The notes under the pieces: generated by a model
Database searches by the model: none
What the model was told of the DNA's origin: nothing
Seen by the model: only the letters and a program-made list of their open reading frames with translations
Source: Perkinsus olseni
Lineage: Eukaryota
Length of the DNA stretch: 50,624 nt
Direction of reading: 5' to 3'
Assembly: GCA_013115125.1 (NCBI GenBank)
Contig: JABANN010000225.1
Coordinates: 1 to 50,624 of the forward strand
In this document: positions 126-48,400 of the stretch, piece after piece
Position numbering within the stretch: the first letter of the stretch is position 1
How the letters are laid out: every line of letters starts with the position of its first letter
Program-made: the position numbers and the translations under genes

Positions 126-430
126 GTATATTCAGCCATATCGGCATAGGCACATGTTGTTAATCGATAACCTGAGACTTCATTGCAATTTTATTGTAAA
201 CTTGTCTTACCGTCACCGTAATCTCAGATTCGACTGGATCCAGTGCCGTGTCCAGAGTCGGGTAAACCTAAACGATAGTTGACCGATTCAAATAATTTGT
301 CTGTACAACCTGTACGGTACCGTTATGCTGTCACCAGCGAATTGACACGTCGTTCCGGGCCCCGGAATCCGGGGTACTCAACACATCAAGATTCTCGATT
401 CAAGAAAGAGATGAAATACGAGCGGATACG

Positions 431-1990
431 CTAGGTTGCACGACTCTGTGCACTTCGCACTTTTGATAGAAGCCTAGGCTCGCTGGGACACTGGAGTGGA
501 TCATATGCATATGATTTTCGTATAATGAAAGATGAAACAGTTACAGCGGAGGCTCCAACCGCCCACAAAATTGCTTCATCCATGGTCCCTCTCATTGGGG
601 GCCTGTCGAGTGGATGATAGACCAGCGAGCCGCAAACCGTTCGAGATAAGACATTATATGCTCCGGAGAACAGGGCAAGAATGGGAATGGTACACCATCT
701 ACCAACCTTCTTGGAGACCCAACTAGTTGACAGTTCATGTCCCAGAAGGAGCATCAAGGGAGCCCGAAAGCACAACATCAGTATTGGCATGGTCGCGCTG
801 CGTAACTTCCATAATAATATGCAAAAAGAGCTCGGTACGGCGGTACGTTCGGTACCTGGAGCATTCATTGGGATTGAGGGAATCATGTTATAGTCGAAAA
901 TAGGACGGATCGAGCGGGCAACGGGGCACGCCGCGCGTGAAACAACGAGAGGAATGTGGGACGCGCAAATAATTCGCAGCGCAGCGCGGGAGAACAGCCA
1001 ACTCGGGTGATGCTTCTCTTCGTCTTCACCCAACCAAAGGCCCCTCACGACTGCTGCAAACTCTGCCTCCGAACCATACATATCAGTTACAAGCTGCTTG
1101 AGGTAGGAGTAGTCGGCCAATGATGAACACTTAGCTTTGTGTATGTTGAAACGCTTCACTCTGGAACAGAACTTCTGCCACTCTTCACTGCAGTCGAAGG
1201 CTCCCTGGTCTATGAGAAGACTTGTGGCCAGTCCCAAGAAGTGAGCAGTGTACACATTGTGCGTACTGTCTATTCTAGCGCTGTAGGGTTCTGTGAGGTA
1301 CATGGTGACGATACTGAAGAACTGCAAGAGCATTAGCGATACGCACAGCTTAAGGTGGTTAAGGTTGACCAAGATCACATCATCTTCATCATGTGTCTGT
1401 AGGAAAACGGCCAACTCGTAGACGCACCACAGGCGCTTGAGATAATCAGGCGACCAGAGTACGAGCAGCTTGTCTGATGCCTGCAGGTAGTCGGCCAGCT
1501 CCGATATACCATAGGACTTGGCAGTGGGGTCCTTCTGTGGTATACAGCATTTATCGAGAAATACCATGGTGCTGCGATGTTTGAATAACGGGATAATGAA
1601 TAGGGCGACTAGAAATGATACAAAGCCAAAAACGAATGCGAGTAGTTCGATTTCTCCGTCGTGTCGCTCCGGGGAGCACAGGAAATAAGCTCCCATGAGG
1701 GACGACAATAACGTGATATTTTCGGTAGAGGTAGAACTACAGCAGATGAGAAGAGCCATCTGCTTCCAAAAGCCACCAGCAGACCATGAATGGCTTAAGA
1801 AAAAATCGACAGAGGTGACCGGCACCGAGGAGAGGAATGCATCTTCATGGCTCTCGGAGTTACGGAGGAAGGATCGATCCCACATGATGGTAGATAAGCG
1901 GCAGCCTCGGAGACGCGTATCTCCACAAACCCTCTGGGAGCCCAAAGATGGCCCAGTGTGATCCGTCATGAGGGGGAGGGGTGTGGGCAT
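431..1990 (-). CDS. Intronless multi-pass membrane protein with a TIR-like domain
   Basis: Long ORF, first ATG at 1990. TIR-like motifs DFFLSHSW, VFLDKCCIPQ and LLVLWSPDYLKRLWCVYELAVF, plus several hydrophobic helices. Confidence 0.75.
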   Translation of the reverse strand: MPTPLPLMTDHTGPSLGSQRVCGDTRLRGCRLSTIMWDRSFLRNSESHEDAFLSSVPVTSVDFFLSHSWSAGGFWKQMALLICCSSTSTENITLLSSLMGAYFLCSPERHDGEIELLAFVFGFVSFLVALFIIPLFKHRSTMVFLDKCCIPQKDPTAKSYGISELADYLQASDKLLVLWSPDYLKRLWCVYELAVFLQTHDEDDVILVNLNHLKLCVSLMLLQFFSIVTMYLTEPYSARIDSTHNVYTAHFLGLATSLLIDQGAFDCSEEWQKFCSRVKRFNIHKAKCSSLADYSYLKQLVTDMYGSEAEFAAVVRGLWLGEDEEKHHPSWLFSRAALRIICASHIPLVVSRAACPVARSIRPIFDYNMIPSIPMNAPGTERTAVPSSFCILLWKLRSATMPILMLCFRAPLMLLLGHELSTSWVSKKVGRWCTIPILALFSGAYNVLSRTVCGSLVYHPLDRPPMRGTMDEAILWAVGASAVTVSSFIIRKSYAYDPLQCPSEPRLLSKVRSAQSRAT

Positions 1991-45335: not shown

Positions 45336-45494
45336 GAGGTTACAAGATACCTTTCGGAAAATACCCTTTTTATTGCCGATCGTTTTTGGAACTTCAGCGT
45401 CGCTCAATTCGCTCGACAAAAACGACAAACATGAATCGCTTCGCTCCGCCTCCCAAATCGAATCGAGTATTTTTCCATGCACAAGACGATCATC
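45336..45494. promoter_or_regulatory. Short divergent intergenic region (glutaredoxin / PPWD1)
   Basis: 159 bp between head-to-head ATGs; contains the recurrent GCTTCGCTCCGC motif at 45438-45449. Confidence 0.45.
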
Positions 45495-48400
45495 ATGTCG
45501 AGTTCTCCGAGTGAAGAGAAGAAGAAGGAGGGTCTCGATGATGAGGGTCTGAGCTCCTCTTCCTCCTCCGAGGACGAGATGGGCCCTGCCCCGGTGGTAA
45601 GGGACAAATCCCGAACGATTGATGGAAATTTTCTGTCCTCAGCCGGCACCTCAACCAGCCAAGAAGCGTCGGAAAATAAGGAAACAGTTGGCCCATGAGA
45701 AGGAGTATCTTGAGAATCTTCCCAGTGCGGCCATGTACGAGAGGAGCTTCATGCATCGGTAGTAGTGCTGTAATTCTCTCCTATGATCTGATTCGAGTCG
45801 TTCCGCAGGGCCCCGGTCTCGCACGTTGTGGTGTCCAAGTCACAGGAATTCATCATAACTTGCTCGACCGATGGTCACGTCAAGTTTTGGAAAAAACGGA
45901 AAATAGGGGTAGTAAAAGTTGCATTGGGTGAGGTCGAGCGAGGGTTTCACGAGTATCAAAGATATTCCTGCGTATCATCGGTCGAATCAGGTTGAGTTCG
46001 TGAAGCACTATGCAGCCCATAAGGGTCCGATAGCCTGCGCCACCATCAGTGCTTCCGGTATGGAATTCGCAACGCTGGGGAAGCAGGACAAGTAAGCGGA
46101 GATATCTTGAGGTTGAGCGCGGCTTTCATAGGAGTGTAAGATACCCTATGTCGTTGTAGATGCGTGAAAGTATTCGATGTTGCTGGTTTTAACATGGTCA
46201 TGATGCACAAGTTTTCCAATCTGGATCCCCTCTCTTGCTGCTTCATTCACGAAGCCGATTCACCCTCGGCGACCTTGGCTGTGTCGAACACGAATAACAG
46301 TAAGATACTCATCAACCTATTGAAGAATGGAAGGTGGCATTTCTCAGGTACGGTGGAAATTTGGCCGATTTCGAAATTGGGCAACCCGAAGGCAAAGCCA
46401 AAGACGTACACTGCCCATCTCGACCCGGTGCAACATATGAAGTAATTATAATACCGCAGCTGAGAATTGAACCAGGGATCTCTCGTAAGGTACAATGATA
46501 AACTGAAGTTGGTGGTATCGATTGATACTGGAGGGCTGATTGATATCTGGGACCCAATAACATTGCAGCTACCGGAAAGCGTATCTTTCAAGTCCAAATT
46601 CGACACAAGTCTCTTCGACTTGAAGGCAGCTGAGGTAGTATCATGAGGTCGACAACGTCAGCAGGACGCGGGAATACTAGTTGGGTGCACCTGGGCACTT
46701 CCCTTTCCAATGGCGATCCGCCAACCGCCGCATTTCGTATGACTGTTGAAAAATGTATGCTCTATCAAGTGATTGTGATCGTTCCAACTGTAGCCTTCAA
46801 TGACGCAGGCGAATGTCACATTATTGGCGATAGAATCAACTATGTCATCACGACGCGGGAATACCAGTAGAGTTGCGCCCGGGCATTTCTCACCGCTCCA
46901 TTCATCGTATTTCATAGAACTATCGGAAAAAATGGTACATATTCTCTCATCAAAATGAGAAATGTTCTCAAATGTCTCGTCAAAGTCGGGCGAGAATCAT
47001 AGCCTATGATTCATAGGATGTCCACCCCTTGTATCAGACGACCGCCTTCGACCTGGCCATCTCCCCTGACGGTGAGCGCTTTGCAGTCCTCAGTAGAGAC
47101 TCCCAAGTGAGGGTATTCAAGACAAGGTCCGTCCCAGCCACTGCCTCTCTACCCATGCTTCCCCCTTACAGGACCGGCAAACTCTTTAAAGGCTTTGACG
47201 AGTCTCTGGACGCGACCAGCATCGCGCAGTCAGACCCTCTGATGAAACAAGTTCATTTGGACGGGTAACAGCCTGCCTGTAGGTAATTTCGTGGCGCGTG
47301 AAAAATTGCATTCTTCAGATTCGATTTTGGCCGCCGATGTGCGGTAGAGAAGGAGCTGTTGAAATCACCCGACGCGATGTATCAAACGCTGGACTTCGAT
47401 CAGTCCGGCAACTTCATCATCTACCCCACTATGGTCGGTATCAAGGTAGAAGCACGGGAAATATCTTCAGGTTGGACCGAGCTCTTTATGTTAGGTGGTG
47501 AATCTTGTGACAAACCATTTGTCAGCTCTACTTGGAAAGGTCGAGTCGAGTGAAAGATTCCTCGCTACAGCATTGTAGTAAAAGCACCGCCCTTCGCTCT
47601 CTCAATTCGACCCCATTCCAGATTGCAACCCAAGCCTGTCCGACAGAAGGTCAACCCCGGAGGGGAAGACAACATCGCAGCAGCCGGGGCAGGGGCCTAC
47701 GAGTACGTCACCGATCCGACCTTAGTGGCGACCAGGTAACGTGCGAGTCGAGATGGGAAGGTGATTTCATTTTCATCATCATCAGCTTTAAAAAGAAACG
47801 ATTCTACCTCTTCACGAAGCGTCTTCCGAGCGACACCGGGGCTGGCCAACAGCGCGATATCTTCAATGAGAAACCGACGGCCGATGAGATGTCCGCTGCT
47901 GCTGCCGCCGCTGCTGGCAGCAGAAAGCCGCAGATCAAGTAGGGAAGGGAAGGTGTGGGAGGGGGGATGACTATCATTCAGGATCGGCAAGAAGGCGGTC
48001 ATCCACACGGACTTCGGTGACATCCAAATTGACTTGTACGGCAAACTGGTGCCGAAAACGGTCGAGAATTTCACTAAGCATGCACAGGATGGGTATTATG
48101 ACGATGTGCTCTTCCATAGGGTAATAATGCAGGGTGCAGGGATTGAACCCGCGACCTATTCGGATACCGCCGTGTAGGTTATCAATAAGTTCATGATACA
48201 AACAGGAGACCCCGAAGGCACTGGAATGGGGGGCAGCAGTATCTGGGGTGGCGACTTCGAGGACGAATTCGTAAGCTCGAAAGATACGTCACTCGGGTAG
48301 GCTCTACCTCGACCAGGTCCCTGAGCTGGATCATTCCGAGCCATACATGGTGTCAATGGCGAACGCGGGGCCCAACACCAATGGATCCCAGTTCTTCATC

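Follow-up and report, generated by a model that had tools for sequence, protein, structure and literature searches.

What leaves the same palindromic figure, each time in a different sequence, at place after place in the genome of the shellfish parasite Perkinsus olseni? The question is raised by a stretch of 50,624 nt, called the window here, which is an entire contig (C1382) of a 39.9-Mb genome in 3,353 contigs. Along it lie units of 22 bases that read N1-7 + rc(N1-8) + N2-8, where N1-8 is an 8-mer and rc its reverse complement; that is, two overlapping odd palindromes with centres 7 bases apart. We consider it likely that each such scar is the repaired donor site of an element of the hAT superfamily, either autonomous or a miniature inverted-repeat transposable element (MITE). 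An initial annotation of the window had listed six units, had read them as stereotyped scars of hAT-like insertion and excision and had placed five of them in the first 4.1 kb. All six lie where it put them, with the parse and the 8-mers that it gave, but a pattern scan brings the total to nine perfect units, one unit with one mismatch and one with two, and three perfect ones had thus been overlooked. The clustering is also present, though with eight units (six perfect, two degraded) instead of five over the first 4.1 kb, and it is one case of a genome-wide clumping in non-coding DNA, not the mark of a special locus. The scars of the window are the following.

353..374, no strand, perfect scar, 8-mer TTCCGGGG; polymorphic between strains (absent from X8/X9, present in X7)
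385..406, no strand, degraded older scar with 2 mismatches, explained by 1 substitution in the middle copy; overlooked initially
2021..2042, no strand, perfect scar, 8-mer CTAGTCGT
2056..2077, no strand, scar with 1 mismatch, 8-mer ATCATCCT; overlooked initially
2837..2858, no strand, perfect scar, 8-mer GGTTCGTG; within a dispersed repeat
2950..2971, no strand, perfect scar, 8-mer GGGCTCAG; overlooked initially; present in X7
3444..3465, no strand, perfect scar, 8-mer AGTCCGGC; within a dispersed repeat, most other copies of which (10 of 12 paralogues) are empty
4032..4053, no strand, perfect scar, 8-mer GACGAGGC; lies in the segment 3590-4091 (502 bp), which X8/X9 lack
28556..28577, no strand, perfect scar, 8-mer ACTGTGGC; between two related open reading frames (ORFs) on the - strand; overlooked initially
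36757..36778, no strand, perfect scar, 8-mer CTCTCCAC; overlaps stop-to-stop frames without a Pfam match, putative coding only; overlooked initially
46996..47017, no strand, perfect scar, 8-mer ATCATAGG; apparently towards the 3' end of a long intron in a gene on the + strand

Order-4 Markov simulation of the window, run 60 times, gave on average 0, 0.017 and 0.17 units at no more than 0, 1 and 2 mismatches, where 9, 10 and 11 are observed, and pairs of odd palindromes with both arms of at least 6 bases occur nine times at a centre spacing of 7 and not once at spacings of 3-6 or 8-15. For the genome at large we used a sample of 687,726 bases, which is not random: it comprises the window, the contigs around hAT matches, 20 contigs evenly stepped by contig number and extensions of five of those 20. 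This sample holds 108, 60 and 78 units at 0, 1 and 2 mismatches where one simulated sequence of equal length holds 0, 0 and 2, and all 108 perfect 8-mers are distinct. The spike at spacing 7 that the initial annotation had predicted is there, with 129 odd-odd palindrome pairs against 0 simulated and the next highest count, 10, at spacing 14. Odd palindromes with arms of 7 number 276 against 34 simulated and even ones 35 against 31; even-centred or mixed geometries gave no spacing spike and were rejected. When the word length is varied, perfect units number one at 7 bp, 108 at 8 bp and none at 9-12 bp. With mismatches allowed, a 9-bp word gives 0, 4 and 2 units at 0, 1 and 2 mismatches, three of these six near matches lying in a MITE-family stem and two in one nested palindrome, and words of 10-12 bp give none.

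The evenly stepped part of the sample contains 21 scars in 94,531 bases and the part near hAT matches 24 in 150,730. Extrapolated from this non-random sample, the whole genome would hold roughly 5,500-9,000 perfect scars, or about 14,000 counting decayed ones, and the DNA added at about 14,000 scars would make up about 0.5% of the genome. The scars clump (40% of 129 gaps are shorter than 500 bp, against 13.5% expected) and shun long ORFs: none of 168 falls in an ORF of at least 300 aa (coverage 12.1%) and 6 of 168 fall in ORFs of at least 200 aa (coverage 17.9%), long ORFs being a proxy for exons in this intron-rich genome. Such avoidance is expected of a neutral insertion that shifts the frame. 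Decay is graded, with 39 transitions against 21 transversions. Repeated hits on one spot are seen in scars chained at 7-bp steps (L027:7258-7294) and in a single 626-bp contig with six scars (L077); a palindromic tandem array with a 7-bp period (C1103:206000-206700) might derive from chained scars.

Which state is ancestral can be read from alleles and paralogues in which the scar is missing. Four runs were aligned to positions 1-5000 of the window, of which X8 and X9 (both samples from a single study, with near-identical differences) lack exactly 14 letters at 354 in a contig spanning 287-512, where X7 has the scar. The degraded unit at 385..406 is common to X8 and X9, as the contig over 287-512 shows just two gaps, 14 letters at 354 and 12 at 497. 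The X7 contigs, from a study other than that of X1 and X2, hold the scars at 353, 2950, 3444 and 4032 ungapped, in a comparison of assembled contigs, not raw reads, in which X7 may be the same strain. Behind 2843 X8 has a loose end whose first 18 letters match the predicted empty-site continuation at 16, with X9 also loose-ended there, and 27 of 30 letters of an X9 loose end before 3459 equal the predicted empty site; these loose ends come from repeat copies and not necessarily from the same locus. Two other indels of X8/X9 (12 nt behind 497 and 13 nt behind 4199) were inspected by eye and did not parse as scars.

Within the genome, 20 of 216 scars used as queries have a spanning paralogue, of which 12 differ by a net -14, 3 have the scar in common and 5 are ambiguous. 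A pre-insertion allele with the single 8-mer and 14 bp fewer, which a hAT footprint calls for and the initial annotation had anticipated, is therefore found both at 354 in X8/X9 and at 12 of the 20 paralogue-spanned scars. At scar 3444 ten of the twelve spanning paralogues are net -14, and the 22-mer is therefore the derived state. Paralogue alignments within the genome gave no spanning allele or paralogue for scar 2021..2042, and the paralogous matches of scar 2837..2858 end at 2843. Among 166 clean indels between paralogues, a set in which some rows count a single event twice, nine are of 14 nt, seven of these being scars, and none is of 8 nt; indels of 5-13 nt fall within no scar except one that is tandem-duplicated.

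How could an excision add 14 bp and do so uniformly? The scheme that we propose joins what the present analysis provides (the product with its +14 polarity, a pair of independent hairpin-type ends and hAT elements that duplicate 8 bp) to published work for its first two steps; the third and fourth steps, like the identity of the enzymes, we infer. Insertion would duplicate the 8-bp target N1-8. At excision the transposase would cut one base into each flank and seal both flanks as hairpins, as published for Hermes and Ac, and the left end would then read N1-7 followed by the complement of N8, N7 and so on, with the right end as its mirror image. A host nuclease would open the hairpins several bases from the tip, whereupon the left 3' tail, rc(N1-8), would anneal to the right 3' tail, N1-8; trimming of flaps and filling of gaps would give N1-7 + rc(N1-8) + N2-8, a net gain of 14 bp. 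The tails would be complementary because both flanks carry the same duplicated 8-mer. However the eight middle bases are divided between the two ends, the same 22-mer sequence results; any openings whose tails sum to at least 8 would therefore converge on one product, giving uniformity without a fixed nick. Rarer joins outside the 8-base register would give long variants.

If both flanks are hairpinned, some joins can be expected to fall outside the 8-base register and to retain long inverted copies of the flank on either side. Two-ended variants of this kind, with inserts of 16-65 nt and both arms of at least 6, number 23 against 0 simulated; two of them may not be scars, since one is located in a MITE stem and the other next to a tandem array. 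When the apex bases are left free, 20 of the 23 show the complement of N8 at the left apex and that of N1 at the right one (1 in 16 by chance); this count leaves out ten rows that all come from one 7-bp tandem array and would make it 20 of 33. This complement at both ends is a hairpin signature and marks two independent hairpin-type ends. The one-base offset of the hairpin model predicts a complement at the apex (PMC2921059), and the footprints of Ds are centred on the complement of the base adjoining the element (PMC5873905). The arms reach about 30 nt, and the opener could therefore cut far from the tip. With longer variants making up about one in six detectable products, the word stereotyped, as used in the initial annotation, holds for the modal product and not for the whole spectrum.

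The genome offers one candidate for the hairpin nuclease. Its single DRMBL match is nearer SNM1A (E 2e-45) than Artemis (1e-17), in a loose search that does not imply absence of Artemis, and the candidate would be SNM1A/Pso2-like, not Artemis-like, in a genome in which Ku is present. Loss of Ku as the cause of uniform joining was considered and rejected, since there is a Ku-domain gene, which we take to be Ku80-like. On this question PMC6635534 makes no mention of Perkinsus. Budding yeast, in which Pso2 is implicated, also yields long arms (PMC5873905). We speculate, tentatively and with some doubt, that Perkinsus opens hairpins far from the tip and joins them through the target duplication almost deterministically, each imprecise hAT jump adding 14 bp; the genome would then hold a fossil record of 6,000-14,000 jumps whose scars lengthen introns and spacers.

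As the initial annotation had predicted, hAT transposases are present. The hAT dimerisation domain PF05699 scores over its cut-off at 11 places in the genome. An open hAT frame of 819 aa carries PF05699 together with DUF4371, and residues D328, D402, E762, C431-x-x-H434 and R496-W497, which we take to have catalytic roles, are invariant in a three-sequence alignment. Over the part that aligns, a hAT transposase of this genome is 100% identical to a protein labelled as P. olseni, and it is 76% identical to one of P. marinus; a sequence search among solved structures gave no match to the intact transposase. A wider end pattern added three further single ends and no new pair. The contig on which the intact element sits is collapsed and connects to two flanks on the left and two on the right; with one pair of these flanks the element has 16-bp inverted ends and an 8-bp duplication, ACTGTAGC. 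In a 4,094-bp element that contains a hAT domain the 8-bp duplication is CCCAGGAG, and a 260-bp MITE has GCAACCAT, a second copy matching at 7 of 8 positions, TT(T/C)CGAAG. The ends of this MITE match 78 places against 5 for the control, in a family of roughly 40 copies whose putative link to hAT runs through end sequence and duplication length. Scars are also found within hAT elements (L013, L011; C293, C521) and within a copy of the MITE (L143:96-117), and scar formation therefore went on after those copies had inserted. A 4.46-kb candidate with a 9-bp duplication turned out to be two copies of the internal MITE-family stem, with no Pfam match in any of 7 frames, and was dropped. Merlin elements make 8-9-bp duplications, and their transposase has 0 PF12762 matches in the genome. 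For P. marinus, frames related to Merlin are on record, with neither ends nor duplications reported (PMC8101967).

The scars also carry a trace of target choice. In the 108 perfect 8-mers, with both strands pooled, T at position 2 and A at position 7 stand at 44% each, T at position 1 at just 10% and T at position 4 at 19%, while a pyrimidine at 2 and a purine at 7 reach 69% each. The 8-mers thus appear to lean, weakly, towards the preference nTnnnnAn of Hermes (PMC10368747). Four element duplications, a sample too small and with one irregular-ended copy, are all 8 bp long with a pyrimidine at 2 and a purine at 7.

Several observations weigh against hAT excision as the source of the scars. None of the scarred sites was found occupied by an element, either in the run matches listed for positions 1-5000 or in the paralogue alignments, and thousands of scars stand against the few elements found. 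With its other pair of flanks the intact hAT element has irregular ends, hairpin-type palindromes and no clean 8-bp duplication, and the pairing of ends across the collapsed contig was drawn from a common 8-mer. The footprints published for hAT elements vary and are for the most part short (PMC5873905, PMC3499496, PMC2921059), and the classic two-base footprint is not in excess here: inserts of 1 nt number 15 against a background of 14, those of 2 nt 15 against 13, those of 3 nt 11 against 3 and those of 4-7 nt 5 against 1, in a test that requires both flanks intact and to which deletions of flank bases and precise excisions (the single 8-mer restored) are invisible. The target bias is weak and comes from 108 sites, with just four or five true duplications for comparison. 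Of 465 odd palindromes with arms of at least 7, 171 lie outside scars of no more than 2 mismatches, where about 49 are expected by chance; other products or decayed scars therefore exist, and the long variants account for part of them only. Transposases of Mutator-like elements (MULEs) are common as well, with 18 PF10551 matches, several of them in open frames of 540-935 aa. As a separate observation, the irregular copy of the intact hAT element (L033:1500, L126:73-150; C1438, C3003) has altered termini, a 7-bp direct repeat and palindromes in both flanks, and is perhaps an aborted or one-ended excision.

The abundance of MULE transposases bears on a rival explanation, that a MULE with 8-bp duplications made the scars by the same hairpin-and-anneal route. 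The MULE Muta1 hairpins its flanks in vitro (PMC5499845), makes duplications of 8 or 9 bp (PMC5225508) and has its repair steered by the donor duplication (PMC5499845, PMC5225508). Its duplications are, however, a mixture of the two lengths without sequence preference, its excision in yeast is about 90% precise (PMC5225508), and a +14 product is not described in the available parts of either paper. An expectation of mixed and preference-free words, taken from Muta1 only, is not borne out by scars that include no perfect 9-bp case and favour T at 2 and A at 7, and all duplications read, a set that does not include MULE flanks, lie beside hAT or hAT-like ends. We regard a MULE maker as unlikely. 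The excision reading of the initial annotation is supported, and that hAT elements rather than MULEs were the makers is what we infer.

A second rival dispenses with the transposon: in replication or repair, the polymerase would fold back after N7, copy 8 bases of the opposite strand and return at N2. The 22-mer alone formally fits two such template switches, and neither the failure to see a filled allele nor the excess of scars over elements would be surprising. Switching leaves unexplained, however, why the tract should be fixed at 8 bases without neighbours at 7 or 9, and in the paralogue alignments the empty sites show no prior inverted repeat. The long variants invert both flanks around one 8-mer with the predicted apex bases, for which three switches would be needed, and even-centred palindromes are not in comparable excess. 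Taken together, this makes template switching very improbable.

It is likewise very improbable that a host-encoded or domesticated nuclease forms hairpins at staggered 8-base cuts with no lasting insertion, by abortive integration or in a programmed break. Such a nuclease would suit the roughly 6,000 or more scars set against 11 hAT domain matches and one MITE family, as well as the 76% identical relative of the intact transposase in another Perkinsus species. Against it, the duplicated 8-mer would have to be filled in before hairpinning, which insertion does naturally, and the intact transposase, in the manner of a mobile element, has terminal inverted repeats on either side at two or more places. 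End-joining repair after cut-and-paste would also leave scars without a rise in copy number. An assembly or library artefact made of fold-back chimaeras would be compatible with a comparison limited to contigs, but can be dismissed, given that the independently assembled X7 contigs hold the same scars and that the scars decay gradually with a transition bias, avoid long ORFs and are shared by duplicated segments.

Excision of hAT elements, the preferred reading, places the scars beside well-studied systems. In the 8-bp word, the apex bases, the empty allele and the presence of transposases they behave, to judge from sequence, like donor sites of Ac/Ds or Hermes after repair. The footprints of Ac/Ds, known from S. 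cerevisiae, Arabidopsis, Candida albicans and sugar beet (PMC5873905, PMC1978519, PMC2921059), share with the scars, besides palindromic additions centred on the complement of the element-adjacent base, hairpin opening and joining at microhomology; arms reach 20 nt in budding yeast, and a single footprint can dominate a given site. Their spectra, however, are heterogeneous, mostly of 1-3 nt and from single engineered sites, whereas in Perkinsus one sequence-independent geometry dominates the detectable products at natural sites numbering in the thousands, with the entire duplication as microhomology and no excess of short forms. Hermes and TcBuster likewise duplicate 8 bp and form flank hairpins (PMC10368747, PMC3499496), but TcBuster prefers nnnTAnnn, a preference absent from the Perkinsus scars, and leaves a few bases or deletions. 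The bias of the scars is weaker than a strict consensus would be. The P-nucleotide additions of V(D)J recombination are short, and there is no target duplication and therefore no pair of self-complementary tails. The likeness lies in the asymmetric opening of hairpinned ends, which adds palindromes in both cases, a parallel found in PMC5499845 and PMC1978519.

Footprints as such are known; what differs here is that the whole duplication serves uniformly as microhomology, and does so at natural sites by the thousand. The literature searched, which did not extend to supplements or to most subscription papers, the Perkinsus genome papers included, held no report of the Perkinsus scars or of a uniform genome-wide footprint. 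The +14 product may be listed among many others in supplements or in two studies of footprint spectra, one on Ascot-1 of Ascobolus and one on Ds in yeast (Yu et al. 2004).

Excision footprints are usually too varied to be recognised without a known element, and past cut-and-paste activity is therefore invisible once the elements have left. A fixed, sequence-independent scar makes the jumps countable, giving their numbers, target preference, age profile and hot spots from one genome. Each scar is at the same time a polarised marker, with the empty state ancestral, for the strain history of the parasite, and the scars together are an in vivo read-out of hairpin opening and joining in an early-branching alveolate. 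The pattern is simple enough to be scanned for in any genome. If joining is indeed near-deterministic, a single assembly would contain a dated record, at base resolution, of jumps by elements that have mostly departed.

Other features of the window can be noted. An intronless frame of 529 aa at 431-2020 (-), which belongs to a multicopy family, matches a TIR domain weakly (PF13676, E 1e-4, below cut-off) and is flanked by scars on both sides, at 353-406 and 2021-2077. The segment 3590-4091 (502 bp) that is missing from X8/X9 and holds scar 4032 has no evident inverted ends. At 4130-4260 there are short direct and inverted words like TAGGAC/GTCCTA, with a 9-1-9 palindrome at 4205, which resemble the remains of a small element. 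Tandem repeats of a gene family extend over 35195-41132 at a spacing of about 1.0-1.2 kb, the pair at 39140 and 40302 being 97% identical. A motif near TTTCGTGGCGCGCGA recurs at 7273, 7749, 20533, 21068, 23953 and 47285; it is probably a promoter element and resembles an E2F site. The window further contains a chitin synthase fragment (PF01644) at 12099-12848 (+), a tRNA-Arg at 5967-6041 (-) and a tRNA-Ser at 49786-49867 (+).

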